A stretch of 64,000 nucleotides of DNA from an uncultured Actinomycetes bacterium (GTDB lineage: Bacteria; Actinomycetota; UBA4738; HRBIN12). Location: positions 1,567,565 to 1,631,564 of the forward strand of contig CAVRAV010000001.1 of the NCBI GenBank assembly GCA_963719165.1, read 5' to 3'. Below the pieces are notes generated by a model that saw only the letters and a list, made by a program, of their open reading frames with translations, was not told the DNA's origin and made no database searches. The position numbers were made by a program, and so were the translations under genes. Below, piece after piece: positions 5,101 through 64,000 of this stretch (positions are counted from its first letter, which is position 1; the number at the start of each line of letters is the position of its first letter).

Positions 5101-7725
5101 CCTCGATCGACTTCGAGGGCACACCCGTGGAGTCGAACGAGGGCGACACGATCGCCTCCGCGCTCTTCCGCGCGGGCGTACGCACCTTCACGCGCTCGCT
5201 GAAGTATCACCGGCGCCGTGGTCTGTACTGCCTGAGCGGCGACTGCCCCAACTGCCTGATGACCGTGGACGACGTGCCCGGCGTCCGTGCTTGCACGACG
5301 CCGGCGCGCTCGGGCCAGCGCGTGCGCCGCGAGTCCGGATCCCCGTCCGCGGAGCGTGATCTCCTGGGGCTCGCCGACAAGGCACACCGCCTGATGCCGG
5401 TGGGGTTCTACTACAAGTCGTTCACCAGACCGCGCTGGCTCTGGCCCCTCGTGGAGAAGGTCGATCCGCCGCCACACGGGCGTGGGGACGCTGCCCGTCG
5501 ACCGGCTGCCGCAGCGCAAGAGCGCCCGCCATGCGCGCCCCGACGTCCTGGTGATCGGCGGCGGCGTGGCCGGACTCGCCGCTGCCCGGGCGGCCGCCGG
5601 CACGGGCGCCACGGTGGCGGTGGCGGACGAAGGCCGCTTCGCCGCGGCGATCCCGGCGGGACCGCTCCAGCGCCGGATCGAGCACCTCGCCGCCGAGCTG
5701 CGGGCCATCTCCACCGTGGAGCTCCTGGAGCAGCACGTCGCGATCGGCATCTACGAGGGGCCGACCGTTCCCTGCGTGGGTCCCGATGAACTCGTGGAGG
5801 TGGAGCCGGGCCGGGTCATCGTCGCCACGGGCGCCGTGGAGGCCCACGGGGTGTTCACGGGCAACGATCTTCCGGGGGTCTGGCTCGGGCGTGGGGCCGC
5901 GCGCATGGCGGGCGTGCACGGCGTGGCGCCCGGACGATGGGCGGTGGCGGTGATCGATACGACCGAGGGGCTGGAGCATCTCGGCATCCTCCGCTCGGCC
6001 GGCATGCGGGTCGCCGAGGTCGTGGCACCCGACGCGATCGCCGACCAGGTACCGGCGGGCATCGCCGTCTCGCGCAACGCGCGTCTCGTCGCCGCCAACG
6101 GCAGGGGGCGCGTGGAGTCCGTGCTGCTCGGGACCGCCAGGGGTGAGCGGACCGTGGCGTGCGACAGCGTCGTGGTCTCCCTCGGCTACGCGCCGCGCGA
6201 CGCGCTGGTCCGGATGGCCGAAGGGCTGCCCGTCTCGGCGGCGGGGGACGTCGTGATCCCCGGATGCACGGCCGAGGAGGCTGAGGCATCCGGGTCACGG
6301 GCCGGATCCGACGCAGGGCGGGCCGACCACGCCGGCGAAACCGCCCGGGCGCCGTTGGGCGCGGGAGGCTACGTCTGCCTCTGCGAGGACGTAGGCGTCG
6401 AAGACCTTCGCGCCGCGTGGGCGGAGGGGTGGACGAGCGCCGAGATCCTCAAGCGCTACACGACGACGACCATGGGTCCCTGCCAGGGCGCGATGTGCGG
6501 CACCCACCTCGCCGCGTTCGTGGAGGACCAGGGCGGCGCCCAACGGGCGCAAGGCCGCACGACCGCGCGCCCCCCCGTGAGGACCGTCCGGTTGGAGGAT
6601 CTCGCCGGCGGCGTGAACGAGGTGATCGAGAAGCGGACCGGCCTGCACGACACGCACGTCGCGGCGGGCGCGACCTTGGATCGGTCCGGCAGCTGGACCC
6701 GCCCTTCGACCTACGGGGACGTCCCCGCCGAGATCAGGGCGGTGCGCGAGGCCGTGGGCGTGATGGACGTGGGAACCCTGGGGAAGTTCCTCGTCGGGGG
6801 GCCGGACGCGCAGCAGCTGGTGGACCGGCTCTTCACCTGTCGCATGCGCGATCTCGAACCAGGACGCGCCCGCTACCTCCTCGCCCTCGACGAGGCCGGG
6901 TACGTGATGGACGACGGGCTGATCTGCGCGCTCGATGCCGAGCGCTACTACGTGACCTCGACGTCGGGCGGCGCCGACAGGATGGAGGCCTGGCTCCGGA
7001 ACTGGGCGGATCGATGGCACCTGCGGGCGCTCGTGCTGGACCAGACCTCGATGCTCGGCGCGGTCAACGTGGCGGGTCCGCGGGCCCGGGAGCTCCTGCA
7101 GCGCCTCTGCGACGACGACGTCGGCCCGGCAGCCCTCGGTTACGGGCGGCACGGCGAGATCACCGTGGCCGGCGTCGACTGTCGAGCGATCCGATCGGGG
7201 TTCGTCGGCGAGGTGTCGTTCGAACTCCACCACCGGCGGTCGACCGGTGGAGCCCTATGGGAAGCGCTGCGGGGGGCGGGCGCCGACCTGGGTCTGCGAC
7301 CGCACGGTCTCGACGCCCTCGATGTGCTCCGCCTCGAGAAGGGGCACAGTTACCTCGGTCAGGACACCCTGCCCGATGACCACCCCGCCAAGCTGGGACT
7401 GACGTGGGCGGTGGACATGGATAAGCCCGGCTTCCTGGGCAAGACCGCGCTCCTGCGCATGGCGGCCCTGCCGCTGGAGCGCAAGCAGGTGGGACTCGAC
7501 TTCGCCGCCGAACCCCAGCGCGGCGCGCCGCTGTACGCGGACGACGCGATCGTGGGCCGGGTGACCTCGTGCGCCCGCTCCGAGGTCCTCGGACGCTGGA
7601 TCGGCTTGGCGTGGCTGCGCCGGGTGGACGGCGCCTTCCCCTCGCATGTGCGGGCGGGCGAGGTCGACGCCACCGTCGCGGACACCCCGTTCTACGACCC
7701 GGATGGTGCGAGGCAACGTGCTTGA
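5097..7725 (+). CDS. soxA: Sarcosine oxidase alpha subunit-like (2Fe-2S / FAD-NAD / BFD-like / GcvT domains); single-base frameshift near 5463
   Basis: N-part GDTIASAL..RSLKYHRRRG..CPNC in ORF 5013..5789; continues as IRRHTGVGTLP..GGGVAG, KRYTTTTMGPCQG, DVGTLGK, LRLEKG, PFYDP in ORF 5482..7725 after removing one base. Confidence 0.85.
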
Positions 7726-59453: not shown

Positions 59454-59849
59454 CTACGGTTGGGACACGAGGGTCGCCGTGCGGATGTGACAGTAGCTGC
59501 CCAACGGCACGTCCACGCGCAACGTGCGGACCGGTCCCCGCCAGCTGAACTCGCACGCCTTGCCCCGGATCTGATGGATGTCGGCGCTGACGGTGGCCGG
59601 GCCCACGAGGACCCCCACATCCTTCAGGAACCGGAACCGAACACGAGCCCCCGCGGTGGCGTGCGTCCTCGGCGAGCAGTCGACCCGAAGCTCGGTGGTG
59701 TGCACGTCGTCCGGGCCGACGTCACAACCGCCAGGGTTCGCCACGCCGTTGTGTTCGACCCCCAGCCTCGTGATGGGGCCGGCGGCCGCGAACGCCGTGC
59801 CGGCCAGCGCGGTGAGCAAGATCACGGTGGCGATGAACATCTTCTTCAT
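59454..59849 (-). CDS. Secreted hypothetical protein with four Cys
   Basis: MKKMFIATVILLTALAGTAFA signal peptide. Confidence 0.7.
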   Translation of the reverse strand: MKKMFIATVILLTALAGTAFAAAGPITRLGVEHNGVANPGGCDVGPDDVHTTELRVDCSPRTHATAGARVRFRFLKDVGVLVGPATVSADIHQIRGKACEFSWRGPVRTLRVDVPLGSYCHIRTATLVSQP

Positions 59850-60048
59850 ACTTGACCCCCCCGACTCGGACCCATCATCACTACCGCATGATCCGCCCGG
59901 GCGTCCACCCGAGGAGGACGAGGGGCTCGCGGTCGCCGGGAGGATGCGGTCCACGCTCGGTAGACCGCACGGCCGATGGCCGGATATCCGACACCGCATG
60001 CGGGCCCGGCGCGCTAGCGTGTTGCTCGATCCTCACGAGGGAGCCGAC

Positions 60049-61596
60049 GTGGAACGGCATGGCTCGGAGAGTTACTTCGTCATCGGCGAAGGCCTCCTGT
60101 CCGAAAGCCTCGGAGGCCGAGAGCGGAGCCTCGCCGCCGACGTCGCGGCAGACCCGCCGTTCCGCTTCACGAGGATGGGGCCTAAGGGGACCGATCGGCA
60201 GCTGAGCGACGCCAATCGCAAGAAGCTCGGCAACGCCATGGTCACGGCCGGCGGTGGGGAATCGCAGAGCCCGGCCGGCTTCACGTACCTCGGCCAGTTC
60301 GCCGACCACGACCTCACCTCGGACAAGACCAACGTCATGCTCGGCCAGAACGTCTCGCCGGCCGACCTGTTGCAGGGTCGTTCGCCGAGCCTCGATCTGG
60401 ATTCGCTCTACGGCGCGGGGCCGGCGGATCCCGGATCGGCCATGTTCTACGAGGCCGACGGGATCCACCTCAAGATGGGCAAGACCGTCGCTTCAGGCGG
60501 GATCGCGGCCAAGGCCGGGTTCGACCTTCCCCGCGGGGAGGGAACCACAGCCGCCCAGAAGCGCAAGGCCATCATCCCGGAACCCCGCAACGACGAGAAC
60601 CTCGCGGTCGCCCAGACGCACCTCGCCTTCATCCGCTTCCACAACCGCGTCGTCGACACGCTGCCTTCCTCCGTGCCGCCGAGCCAGCGCTTCGTCCACG
60701 CGCGGCGGATCGTCACGCGCCACTACCAGTGGGTACTGCGCACCGACTTCCTTCCCCGCATATGCGCCGCGGGCGTGGTGAACGACGTCTTCACCAACGG
60801 TCGGAAGGCGTTCGAGGTGGGGGCGAGCCCGACGGACGTGCCCACGATGCCGATCGAGTTCTCGGTAGCGGCCTACCGGCTCGGACACTCCATGATCAGG
60901 GACGCGTACAACTGGAACGCCGTGTTCGATAACGGCTCCGGATCGCTCGACCTGCTGTTCGCCTTCTCCGGGCTGAACGGAGACTTCCTCGGCGATCAGC
61001 GTCTGCCCAGCACGTGGATCGCGGACTTCCGACGGCTCTACGACTTCGGCGATGCCGGCAAACCCGGGCTCGTGGTGCCCCCGGCCAAGTCGAACCGGGC
61101 GATGCGCATCGACACGAGGCTCGCGAACCCCCTCGCGCACCTGCCCGGCTTCCCGCCTGCCGAAGACAACCTCGCGGTACGCAACCTGACCCGGGCCCGG
61201 ATGGTGAAGCTCGCGACCGGTCAGCAGATGGTCACGTTCCTGAAGAACAAGGGCGTCACGCTGACGAAGCTCACGAACGGCCAGGTCCGCGACGGGAACA
61301 ACGGGGCTTCGCTGGAGGGGCTCACCGACCAGCAGCGGGCCGCTGTCGTCGCGAACACACCGCTGTGGTTCTACATCCTGCGGGAAGCAGAACTCAACGG
61401 GGGGAAGCTGAAAGGGGTCGGCGCCCGGATCGTCGCCGAGACCTTCCACCGGGCGATAGAGGGCAGCCAGACATCGATCGTGCGCGACGCGACGTGGCAC
61501 CCGACGCTCGGCCCCGATGCCACCACGTTCCGGATGGTCGACCTCCTGTTGTTCGCGTTCGAGGGGAAAAAGTCCCTGCTCGCGCCCCTCGGGTAG
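60049..61596 (+). CDS. Animal-type (peroxidase-cyclooxygenase superfamily) heme peroxidase
   Basis: AGFTYLGQFADHD, LDLDSLYG, RNDEN, FHN, HYQW, EFSVAAYRLGHSMIR, PLWFYILREAE, IVAE. Confidence 0.92.
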   Translation: MERHGSESYFVIGEGLLSESLGGRERSLAADVAADPPFRFTRMGPKGTDRQLSDANRKKLGNAMVTAGGGESQSPAGFTYLGQFADHDLTSDKTNVMLGQNVSPADLLQGRSPSLDLDSLYGAGPADPGSAMFYEADGIHLKMGKTVASGGIAAKAGFDLPRGEGTTAAQKRKAIIPEPRNDENLAVAQTHLAFIRFHNRVVDTLPSSVPPSQRFVHARRIVTRHYQWVLRTDFLPRICAAGVVNDVFTNGRKAFEVGASPTDVPTMPIEFSVAAYRLGHSMIRDAYNWNAVFDNGSGSLDLLFAFSGLNGDFLGDQRLPSTWIADFRRLYDFGDAGKPGLVVPPAKSNRAMRIDTRLANPLAHLPGFPPAEDNLAVRNLTRARMVKLATGQQMVTFLKNKGVTLTKLTNGQVRDGNNGASLEGLTDQQRAAVVANTPLWFYILREAELNGGKLKGVGARIVAETFHRAIEGSQTSIVRDATWHPTLGPDATTFRMVDLLLFAFEGKKSLLAPLG

Positions 61597-62456: not shown

Positions 62457-63557
62457 GTGCTACGGAACATCTTGATCGTGATCGGCGCGATCCTCGCGCT
62501 CAACGTGCTCCTCGTGGGCGGGCTGGCCCTGTCGAATTGGCTCGACGCGTCCCGACAGCGTCGGGAGATCCGCGAGCTCGAGAGCATCTGGCGTGCGCAG
62601 CGTCGCGGCGCACGGGAAGTGCCGCGGGCGGGACACACACGCCTCGCGGGCGTGGCGTTCGTGACCGTGCTCTTGGCGGCGACGACGACCCTGGCGAGCC
62701 CGCAAGGCCGCGGGGCCCTCACGTCGGCGATCGGGGTCGTGACCCGCGGACTGCACCCGCAACGGGTCGAGCAGGCAGCCGCTGCCTCCGGCAGCGATGG
62801 CCCGCTCTCGTCGCAGGAGGGACCGGGAGCGAACCGGCAGGCACCCAAGACCCCAGTGGATGCGCGCGACGGGGCCGTTGGCCCGGACGCCACGCCGGTC
62901 CGAGATTCCGCGGTGGCGAGCACGCCCCCGTCGGCGGGACAGGCGGCTCCCTCCACCCCGACCGCAGTGACGATGGTGACCGCGGTCTCGATCTCCCCTC
63001 GTCAGGTCCGGGTGCGCTGGGCCGACGTCCCGAGGGAATCCGGCTATCGGGTGGAACGATCGCTGAACGGGGTCACGGGCTGGGCCCCCGTCGCGAACGT
63101 CAGCCGGGACGCCACGTCCGCCGTCGATACGGGCCTCGTGGCCGACACCACCTACTACTACCGGGTGATCGCGACCAACCTGGGCGGCGATTCCTCGGCT
63201 TCGAGCGTGGCGTCGGCGACGACGAGCGTCGTTCCCGCGACGCCCACGCCGCTCACCGCGATCGCGCTCTCCTCGAGCCAGATCGAGCTCGATTGGACCA
63301 ACGTCGGGAACGAGACCGGGTACCGCGTGGAGCGGATGCTCGTAGGCGACCCCGGCTGGACGACGCTCGCGACCACGGGCCAAGACGTCACGCAGTTCAT
63401 CGACGTCGGCCTCACGGGGGGCACCACGTACTACTACCGGGTGATCGCGATCAACGCCAGCGGCGAATCGGCCCCGACCGATGCTGTGTCCGCCGCGACG
63501 AGCACCGCTCCCGCCGGCGACCCGGAGGCCACGACGGCACCGCCTGTGAGCCCGTAG
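62457..63557 (+). CDS. Membrane protein with two fibronectin type III domains
   Basis: W.D...ESGYRVER..TTYYYRVIA.N..G.S twice; TAGGGT box 6 nt before GTG. Confidence 0.88.
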   Translation: MLRNILIVIGAILALNVLLVGGLALSNWLDASRQRREIRELESIWRAQRRGAREVPRAGHTRLAGVAFVTVLLAATTTLASPQGRGALTSAIGVVTRGLHPQRVEQAAAASGSDGPLSSQEGPGANRQAPKTPVDARDGAVGPDATPVRDSAVASTPPSAGQAAPSTPTAVTMVTAVSISPRQVRVRWADVPRESGYRVERSLNGVTGWAPVANVSRDATSAVDTGLVADTTYYYRVIATNLGGDSSASSVASATTSVVPATPTPLTAIALSSSQIELDWTNVGNETGYRVERMLVGDPGWTTLATTGQDVTQFIDVGLTGGTTYYYRVIAINASGESAPTDAVSAATSTAPAGDPEATTAPPVSP

Positions 63558-63618
63558 GTCGGTCGATAGGCAGGCCCGCAGACCATTCGTCATCGGGTCG
63601 CCGACGACCGCTTCGTTA

Positions 63619-63647
63619 TTGCCTTTCGCTTACGCCTGCGGCACCAT
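63619..63647 (+). promoter_or_regulatory. Putative sigma70-type promoter (TTGCCT-17 nt-CACCAT)
   Basis: -35-like 63619-63624, 17-nt spacer, -10-like 63642-63647; implied start near 63654. Confidence 0.45.
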
Positions 63648-63653
63648 AGGGGC

Positions 63654-63903
63654 ACGAGAGGAAGGAGGTGGTCCAGCTTGCATGAACAAGACGAGACCCT
63701 CGAGGTGACTGGCTGCTGAGCCGTCCCTCGCGGGCCGGGGCCACCATCCCGCCCGCTTGCCGGGAGACCGGCAGAATCCACACCAGCTCACCGACCTCAC
63801 GGGTTCCGGCTGGTCTACCGGACGAAGCCTCGTATGAGGCCGCAGCGCCTGTGAGGAGATCCAGCGAACGAGGCCGGGCCCCGGTTGGGGCCCGGCCGTT
63901 CGC
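63654..63903 (+). ncRNA. Candidate structured small RNA with extended anti-16S (super Shine-Dalgarno) 5' segment and micro-ORF
   Basis: AGGAAGGAGGTGGTCCAGCTTGCA; GAGA-tetraloop hairpin 63758-63773; CCTCACGGG/CCTGTGAGG stem enclosing two hairpins; terminal hairpin. Confidence 0.6.
63864..63903 (+). terminator. Strong GC hairpin, probable intrinsic terminator without U-tract
   Basis: GCGAACG-A-GGCCGGGCCCC-ggtt-GGGGCCCGGCC-GTTCGC. Confidence 0.65.
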
Positions 63904-63973
63904 ATTGCGGGGCCCCGGGGTGCCCCTCGACATGGTGCAGGGCAACGACGTGGCCGGTCGTATGCTCGCGTGC

Positions 63974-64000
63974 ATGCGCATGGCTTTCCGCAACCTCCCC
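63974..64000 (+). CDS. Probable 5' end of a leaderless gene running out of the window (MRMAFRNLP...)
   Basis: TATGCT at 63961-63966, 7 nt before ATG. Confidence 0.4.

Follow-up and report, generated by a model that had tools for sequence, protein, structure and literature searches.

The stretch of DNA analysed here (the window) comprises 64,000 nucleotides (nt) from an uncultured Actinomycetes bacterium (Actinomycetota; UBA4738; HRBIN12), at positions 1,567,565 to 1,631,564 of contig CAVRAV010000001.1 in assembly GCA_963719165.1. Near its end, on the forward strand at 63653-63905, lies a structured RNA of about 253 nt which, judged by its sequence, belongs to Ms_IGR-5 (RF02471), an orphan family of small RNAs (sRNAs) from actinobacteria, as a divergent member that scores below threshold. 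Its 5' end complements the entire free 3' tail of 16S ribosomal RNA (rRNA), and a micro-open reading frame (micro-ORF) follows directly. It is probable, in our view, that the micro-ORF is translated, with the complement serving as a maximal Shine-Dalgarno (SD) sequence. The element is thus best read, on present evidence, as a translation-coupled, structured stand-alone RNA rather than as a passive sponge for 30S subunits.

Ms_IGR-5 and CC2171 (RF01867, from Caulobacter) are both orphan sRNAs in Rfam without a proposed mechanism. A complement of the whole 16S tail, a micro-ORF conserved in frame but free in its residues, and a covarying helix together make a testable hypothesis. The analysis also brings into the family an actinobacterial order that has received little study and, as regards the 5' module, Acidobacteriota and members of scattered other phyla. 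Were translation itself the signal, the RNA would sense ribosomes without having a regulated gene attached, unlike attenuators and known dual-function sRNAs. As far as our searches reach, the architecture was previously unremarked: in the literature searched, whose scope leaves out the founding study (Li et al., RNA 2013) and supplementary files, no description was found of SD complementarity, a micro-ORF or a function for Ms_IGR-5.

The features of the element, by position in the window, are as follows.

63619-63647 (+): promoter-like region; TTGCCT (63619-63624), 17-nt spacer, CACCAT (63642-63647)
63653-63905 (+): whole RNA, about 253 nt, assigned as a divergent Ms_IGR-5-type sRNA from the conserved block, the RF02471 match and folding
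63659-63678 (+): pairs with the 16S 3' end; the first 16 nt (63659-63674) are the family-conserved putative maximal SD, and 63675-63678 a lineage-specific extension
63670-63698 (+): hairpin P0, GGUC (63670-63673) with GACC (63695-63698); start codon in the loop
63678-63719 (+): micro-ORF, TTG start, 13 codons, TGA stop; reads LHEQDETLEVTGC* in table 11, the first codon being the initiator
63704-63792 (+): long-range helix P1, GGUGACUGG (63704-63712, ORF codons 9-12) with CCAGCUCACC (63783-63792, one bulge)
63711-63722 (+): small hairpin just inside P1, GGC with GCC, stop codon in the loop (UGCUGA)
63730-63756 (+): hairpin P2, found by covariation; its loop and 3' arm (63737-63749) are similar to the 16S tail and able to pair with the SD region
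63758-63773 (+): hairpin P3, UGCCGG with CCGGCA; two pairs change on both sides
63774-63779 (+): conserved single-stranded junction GAAUCC, directly 5' of the P1 3' strand
63795-63856 (+): 3' domain; P4 (63795-63803 with 63848-63856) encloses P5 (63804-63823, loop CUGGUCUA) and P6 (63827-63840)
63865-63903 (+): terminator-like hairpin with a long GC stem, GGUU loop and weak U tail, from folding and covariation

Pairing with the 16S rRNA tail and family identity

The host has a single 16S rRNA gene, on the same contig outside the window, and the sequence of its 3' end was used for pairing; when mature, this end is assumed to read ...CCUCCUUUCU. Positions 63659-63678 form 20 contiguous pairs with it, without a gap (17 Watson-Crick and three G-U), at a duplex energy of -29.4 kcal/mol. 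Beyond one bulged base a further three to four pairs are possible, and the energy against 25 nt of 16S rRNA is -40.8 kcal/mol. A sequence-only reading of the window had proposed pairing over 20-24 nt. Its transcription of the sequence was correct, and the pairing survives comparison with the host's own 16S rRNA, except that the last position of the claimed complement is unpaired because the host has a G where the canonical C had been assumed.

On both strands of the genome (2,746,831 bases, with the antisense of the 16S gene set aside), this run of 20 is the longest pairing with the 16S tail, the runner-up being 17. All 16 nt of the free tail are paired only at 63659-63674 and in the antisense of the 16S gene; the runner-up across the whole genome pairs 14. 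The next-best genome sites have duplex energies of -21 to -23 kcal/mol, and bare GGAGG gives -11.6 kcal/mol. The window contains the degenerate 16-mer once; none of 100 shuffles contains it.

The same reading did not recognise a named family. No Rfam family reaches its gathering score in 62500-64000, and the cut-off for RF02471 is 45 bits. The RF02471 model nevertheless matches 63654-63848 over model positions 1-184, with 28.5 bits (E 3.2e-4 in the 1.5-kb scan), and this is its only locus in the host genome (28.5 bits, E 1.4e-4 per genome), in which the element is single-copy. Matches occur in 50 of 151 genomes of the phylum, almost always one per genome, with scores running continuously from 185.6 to 21.9 bits and exceeding 45 in 19 of the 151; a same-genus homologue scores 41.7. 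By BLAST, the element is present in 34 of 41 relatives at 72-90% identity. Unpublished genomes are included in both tallies (G020, G037 and G029 among the 41 relatives; G058, G087, G155 and G041 among the 151), and also in some of the alignments inspected, including the one over the promoter-like region.

The reverse search agrees. Model R1, built from 26 sequences all from the window's own order, recovers all 27 Rfam-derived loci with matching coordinates; E is below 0.001 for 25 of these and 0.0033 and 0.13 for the remaining two. None of eight chance-hit controls falls under E 0.1. Because of this reciprocal detection, the element is filed under Ms_IGR-5 despite its sub-threshold score.

The shared anatomy consists of a 5' ACAC..GGAAGGAGGUGGUCC, GGAC..GAGGUGRCUG, an AAUYC junction, and a long 3' helix with an inner hairpin. 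The likeness to Ms_IGR-5 thus takes in the 5' motif, the micro-ORF, P1, the GAAUCC junction, a 3' helix around a hairpin with a GUCC-type loop, and one copy per genome. There are also differences. The mycobacterial Ms_IGR-5 ORF has 12 codons and ends in TAG, whereas the window ORF has 13 and ends in Cys and TGA; in the window copy P1 encloses two additional hairpins, P2 and P3, and a loop there resembles the 16S tail; and the P1 strands are unpaired in the Rfam consensus structure of RF02471 as printed. In the founding study, Ms_IGR-5 was reportedly recovered by pull-down with heterologous Hfq.

Some experimental background exists for the family. Ms_IGR-5 is described as a conserved actinobacterial sRNA and as a discrete unit validated by RNA sequencing in Streptomyces lividans and S. 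avermitilis. Ribosome footprints have been reported on Ms_IGR-5 in M. abscessus and M. smegmatis, and in mycobacteria a consensus SD permits starts at ATG and GTG and also at TTG and ATT.

Family-wide counts draw partly on a pattern scan of named genomes, which returned at least 119 stretches (L064-L182), eight of which are chance hits inside genes. Counts over 158 and 167 sequences draw on L064-L182, among the matches listed. The chance hits (L068, L099, L107, L118, L129, L154, L160 and L165) and same-locus duplicates (L001 and L002, equal to L004; L056, equal to L021) were dropped from the counts, and loci from unpublished genomes (L020, L029, L030, L051 and L061) are outside A1, A2, R1 and the family counts. 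The locating regular expression missed six loci: L016, L017, L022 and L023, with ATT or ATC at the A/T codon, and L043 and L050, with a GGAGG variant.

Complementarity well past GGAGG is conserved, as the sequence-only reading implied. Just 5' of GGAGG, four bases that every search pattern left free are G in 156 of 158 sequences and then R, R and R in all 158, every one able to pair with the terminal bases of 16S rRNA. Among 30 Rfam-derived loci, G-R-U-Y-C follows GGAGGUG in all, and GGAGG itself varies in two, by one wobble and one mismatch. The conserved complementarity amounts to 15-16 nt over the 158 sequences, and variants keep pairing through wobble. The proposed reach into helix 45 (63675-63683) fared differently and was rejected as a selected feature: it is not conserved, varies even within the genus, and positions past +10 pair in only 49-77 of 158 sequences, the sole exception being a purine preference at position +11. 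Since pairing beyond the conserved 15-16 nt is at background and varies within the genus, the reach into helix 45 is peculiar to this genome.

The micro-ORF and the structure of the RNA

In the window, the TTG start of the micro-ORF lies 9 nt past GGAGG. Across the 158 sequences the ORF has 11-19 codons, begins 7-14 nt downstream of the SD and varies in length by whole codons. Reading frames were anchored on the conserved GAGGUG. The stop falls exactly five codons after GAG in 157 of the 167 sequences listed (eight of the 167 being chance hits), and in the same 167 a canonical start 3-16 nt past GGAGG, open to the anchor, occurs 143 times in frame as against 41 and 0 times in the other two frames. 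Start codons interchange (TTG 68, ATG 53, GTG 18, CTG 14, ATA 2, none 3 of 158), and so do the stop codons at the fixed position (TAG 110, TGA 34, TAA 14). Between GRUYC and GAGGUG, stops interrupt the ORF frame in only two of 140 distinct sequences; the other two frames are interrupted in 60 and 133. With dual-function sRNAs the element shares an ORF whose start, frame and stop are conserved.

The three copies without a start (L111, L123 and L131, from metagenome-assembled genomes (MAGs) of Solirubrobacterales) have TTA, CTC or CTT where their close relatives L171 and L175 have TTG, and their frame is nonetheless open to the conserved stop. Either non-canonical initiation or a loss of translation would account for them.

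The residues of the peptide behave otherwise. Codon -3 is NGG (CGG 29, AGG 25, TGG 13 and GGG 11 of 107), encoding R, W or G, and ACN stands at codon -2. The NGG-ACN pattern fits the P0 arm GGAC and no one amino acid, which argues that the peptide is not selected. Selection on the peptide was therefore rejected, its residues tracking the RNA helices, and the pattern of substitution indicates that the frame is under selection and the peptide is not.

The RNA itself is structured, and the several GC stems noted from the sequence are real and show covariation. The window RNA has a minimum free energy of -133 kcal/mol, and relative to 200 shuffles its z is -4.57. For 26 aligned sequences RNAalifold predicts 53 pairs, of which 19 show compensatory changes, chiefly in the 3' domain and the terminator. 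The proposed structure of the 5' domain is 95.4% paired within the order, and at most 49% paired when the partners are slid.

Two helices involve the micro-ORF. In P0, the GRUYC end of the SD pairs with GRAY in codons -3 and -2. This hairpin is invariant within the order and shows partial covariation family-wide at one pair (GC 113, AU 10, GU 4 and AC 8 of 140). In P1, GGUGRCYGN (codons E, V, A/T and x) pairs with a strand 3' of the GAAUCC junction. P1 was located by regular expression in 106 of 159 family sequences, and in these 106 the junction precedes its 3' strand. It is 98.3% paired within the order. Among 52 distinct strand pairs, position 5 is paired in 51, and position 9 occurs as GC 13, CG 18, UG 4, AU 3, UA 1 and GU 1. 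Of the variable cells, 203 of 260 are paired, as against a mean of 172 and a maximum of 186 in 1000 permutations. The small hairpin around the stop codon just inside P1 has a like arrangement in other lineages, by eye and uncounted. One copy, L050 (1500-1593), is a minimal RNA in which P1 surrounds nothing more than a hairpin of four pairs, whose loop holds the stop codon, and a GGAAUCC junction; this minimal form may define the core of the family.

The remaining hairpins are less uniform. Of all intramolecular partners, P2 gives the SD region its most stable pairing (-26.0 kcal/mol), and the window copy has z = -2.5. Its 16S-tail-like motif is limited to certain lineages: 50 of 104 sequences carry it, with a mean z of -1.0, and in the window's order z is about -2 to -3.8. 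An internal mimic of the 16S tail that sequesters the SD is thus real in that order and was rejected as a general feature of the family. The 3' domain carries many compensatory changes at pairs 170-179/238-248 (for example AU 12, UA 5, GC 4 and GU 3 at one pair), and the P5 loop motif GUCC or GGUCC is common across Actinomycetota. The loop pentamer GGUCC equals the 3' end of the SD and is complementary to the P0 arm GGAC and to the GGACCACC motif of some lineages, and a pseudoknot or strand exchange involving the P5 loop is possible.

These elements can be assembled into a mechanism. The RNA would come from a transcription unit of about 253 nt that is present once in the genome and bounded by a promoter and a terminator of its own. 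The 16-nt complement of the entire free 16S tail would act as a maximal SD and would place the 30S subunit on the TTG 9 nt downstream, leading to translation of the 13-codon micro-ORF. The last five codons form the 5' strand of P1, and the loop of the small hairpin immediately inside this helix holds the stop codon. Since the 3' half of the ORF is one strand of P1 and the start lies within the P0 loop, a ribosome on the ORF would have to open both P0 and P1. We infer that ribosomes would initiate at the micro-ORF start, and that the useful output would be a ribosome-dependent change in RNA conformation, or ribosome occupancy, and not the peptide or passive storage of 30S subunits.

The transcription unit and competing readings

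A promoter-like TTGCCT-17-CACCAT and a terminal hairpin had been noted from the sequence, and both are present (63619-63647 and 63865-63903). Strict consensus scans, for sigma-70 promoters and for terminators with a T tail, flagged neither the promoter-like region nor the hairpin, so both assignments rest on conservation and folding. The TTG at the -35 place is kept in every alignment row while the flanks diverge, and relatives in other families have TANNNT-like hexamers at an equal distance. Covariation in the terminator-like hairpin includes, at one pair, GC 11, AU 7 and GU 4. Transcription is predicted to start near 63653-63655, about 5 nt before the complement. A separate terminator-like hairpin with a T-rich tail lies at 63596-63609, just past the stop codon of the upstream gene, which has fibronectin type III (fn3) domains, and the RNA unit therefore begins after it.

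The sequence-only reading had also judged the element to be a stand-alone unit and unlikely to be the leader of the next gene, and this is borne out by a conserved block running from promoter to terminator, an unconserved downstream strand and a single copy per genome. In relatives, the block extends from query positions 33-37 to 302-307 of the window 63600-63910, that is, from between the promoter hexamers to the terminator. At 105 loci, a crude gene call based on GC content at third codon positions (GC3) places the downstream neighbour on the opposite strand 45 times and on the same strand 29 times, and calls none at the other 31. The GC3-based call was used because synteny by clustering of stop-to-stop ORFs (13 representatives viewed, including L051) returned mostly spurious antisense ORFs that overlie the RNA. 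ORFs on the minus strand here, such as 63616-63993, were rejected on the grounds of 1-2-nt indels among close relatives and the covariation of the RNA.

In four of four RNA libraries, contigs that are 82-99% alike cover 63634-63856; these derive from relatives, may include DNA and do not show transcript ends. Across 24 RNA runs from 19 studies, each run holds only 0.04-0.09 of the sampled words. Positions 63492-63611 and 63876-64000 are uncovered in the four RNA runs, and because the flanks of relatives cannot map, these gaps are uninformative about the transcript ends.

Several points weigh against a translated micro-ORF on an Ms_IGR-5 RNA. Firstly, the family assignment is made at 28.5 bits, below the Rfam gathering score of 45. 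Secondly, GAG GUG is invariant, with no synonymous codon in the 107 distinct sequences counted (in L064-L182 the search pattern imposes it), so part of the apparent coding conservation is at the RNA level. Thirdly, a canonical start is absent in 19 of 158 sequences (14 CTG, 2 ATA and 3 with none). Fourthly, 111 of the 158 sequences were obtained with a pattern fixing GGAGGUGRUYC and GAGGUGRCYG, whose columns are not independent evidence, and the sequences are related, so that the counts overstate independence. Fifthly, the thermodynamic fold of the window RNA alone favours a local hairpin over P1, and alternative pairings therefore exist. Finally, the RNA-library contigs are those of relatives, possibly DNA, and map only where the sequence is conserved; in the host, the translation reading is drawn from sequence.

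The best-surviving alternative, which we regard as unlikely, is an untranslated RNA whose 5' end binds the 16S tail and sequesters 30S subunits or pre-16S rRNA, in storage or maturation control, the ORF features being by-products of RNA constraints. The earlier reading had favoured such an RNA. The complement is unique in the genome and very stable, GAGGUG and its flanking bases are constrained at the RNA level, and the 19 sequences without a canonical start would be no anomaly. The reported ribosome footprints on Ms_IGR-5 would also be expected from binding of 30S or 70S without elongation. A pure binding site accounts for none of three observations, however: the interchange of three stop codons at one fixed position, the interchange of ATG, GTG and TTG at the start, and the avoidance of stops in one frame only. 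Indels in whole codons, and the lack of conservation in the complement past the free tail, also count against it. Binding of 30S itself remains likely, whereas passive sequestering is disfavoured, since a conserved micro-ORF starts 9 nt past GGAGG.

A second alternative is an ordinary small-protein gene. Its product would be the 11-19-residue peptide, which has ...E-V-A/T-x-x at the C-terminus, and the remainder would be a structured 3' untranslated region. The strong SD, the conserved frame and the conservation of E-V-(A/T) near the C-terminus fit this, and dual-function sRNAs that encode peptides are known. It is nonetheless quite improbable. Conservation tracks the helices, as in the NGG-ACN codons with their R, W or G; the two residues past A/T covary with the 3' strand of P1; the N-terminal half is unconserved; GAG GUG shows no synonymous change; and the RNA 3' of the ORF is itself conserved and covarying.

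It is very unlikely that the element is a trans-acting, base-pairing sRNA in which the 5' purine tract, GAAUCC and the GUCC loop are seeds for mRNAs and ribosome binding is incidental. The stand-alone form and the conserved unpaired motifs would suit such an sRNA, as would the reported Hfq pull-down, but the 5' tract fits the 16S tail base for base with wobble-only variation, and no set of mRNA targets would impose that across phyla. Least credible, and rejected as extremely improbable, is a 5' leader or attenuator whose leader peptide controls the gene near 63933: the succession of leader peptide and terminator hairpin is reminiscent of classical attenuation and that gene is on the same strand, but downstream sequences are unrelated among relatives, neighbours are on the opposite strand at 45 of 105 loci and on the same strand at only 29, with no conserved same-strand gene, and the Streptomyces copies are discrete sRNA units.

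Distribution, related systems and neighbouring genes

The 5' module (SD, in-frame start, ...E-V-A/T-x-x-stop and P1) is found outside Actinomycetota, in Acidobacteriota MAGs (L084, L090, L102, L109, L122, L141, L143, L144 and L170). L109 scores 47.7 bits with RF02471, above the cut-off, and E 4.8e-7 with R1; the Rfam title is 'Actinobacteria sRNA' despite this match. The module also occurs in L066, L100, L120, L130 and L119, with single Ignavibacteria, Leptospira, Syntrophobacter and Seohaeicola records among the carriers. In five of five non-actinobacterial genomes searched whole (one Acidobacteria MAG and those of the Ignavibacteria, Leptospira, Syntrophobacter and Seohaeicola) it is single-copy. 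In the non-actinobacterial copies viewed, a terminator follows P1 directly and the 3' domain is missing.

A loose pattern matches 52 of 301 Acidobacteriota genomes, about 23 of them family-like by eye; reversed-pattern controls also match several dozen genomes there. A strict pattern in Alphaproteobacteria matches three of 301, of which only the seed genome is family-like. In the unclassified MAG that holds L100, a group II intron domain (RF02005, 168.6 bits; 5987-6211) lies a few hundred bases from the family copy, which is probably coincidental.

CC2171 offers a parallel. It too is an orphan stand-alone sRNA ending in a terminator hairpin, and its expression in two species has been reported from Northern blots. 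A 13-15-nt complement of the 16S tail stands at the 5' end of ten of ten family-like loci (L206-L215, from genomes G498-G539); nine of the ten read GAAAGGAGGUGRUCC, preceded in most by CAACAA. In all ten, an ATG, GTG or TTG exactly 7 nt past GGAGG opens an ORF of 18-30 codons, mostly beginning M-S-H or M-S-S. An eleventh match (L216) is without the module. Compared with Ms_IGR-5, CC2171 has these longer ORFs with their M-S start, and no E-V-A/T-x-x-stop module except in the Seohaeicola copy (L119/L213). The CC2171 model scores 21.3 and 12.5 bits on the window, below its cut-off of 75, with only the 5' SD part and the terminator aligning. The two families share the principle of a 16S-tail complement followed by a short ORF, a likeness that is treated here as analogy.

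It is tempting to speculate that one class of stand-alone RNAs with a maximal SD and a micro-ORF spans several phyla and serves to gauge or buffer free ribosomes, a doubtful proposition at this stage. The class would take in the Ms_IGR-5 RNAs, their relatives in Acidobacteriota and a few other phyla and, by analogy, CC2171. As a gauge, the RNA would capture 30S subunits via the entire 16S tail, obligatory translation of the micro-ORF would melt P1, and the conformation of the RNA, with the action of the 3' domain or of the freed strands, would report the supply of initiation-competent ribosomes. As a buffer, an abundant RNA would hold ribosomes on a dead-end message.

Other known systems resemble the element in part. 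Like the dual-function sRNAs SgrS/SgrT, SR1/SR1P, VcdRP and rnTrpL/peTrpL, it is a stand-alone or released small RNA with a small ORF that would be translated; in those systems the peptide has its own conserved sequence and function, whereas here the frame is conserved and the residues follow RNA pairing, and no base-pairing targets are known, although no search for them was made. Leader-peptide attenuators and translation-sensing upstream ORFs also have a very short ORF whose translation competes with RNA helices; unlike attenuators, the window RNA has no conserved downstream gene and ends at its own terminator. 6S and Ms1 RNAs, which bind RNA polymerase, provide an analogy as abundant structured RNAs that mimic a nucleic-acid ligand of a core machine. 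Here, it is the ribosome that would be bound, and the RNA is apparently translated; stoichiometric sequestration is without support.

The neighbouring genes are of several kinds. The next gene in the window, on the same strand, starts near 63933 and encodes a membrane-like protein of 154 residues. The protein of the upstream gene (62457-63557) has 366 residues, a hydrophobic segment at its N-terminus and two fn3 domains; the two repeats share 75% DNA identity over about 107 nt. Further upstream, at 59578-61596 on the forward strand, a 672-residue ORF contains the stretch ...FTYLGQFADHDLT..., which we take to be typical of animal-type haem peroxidases.

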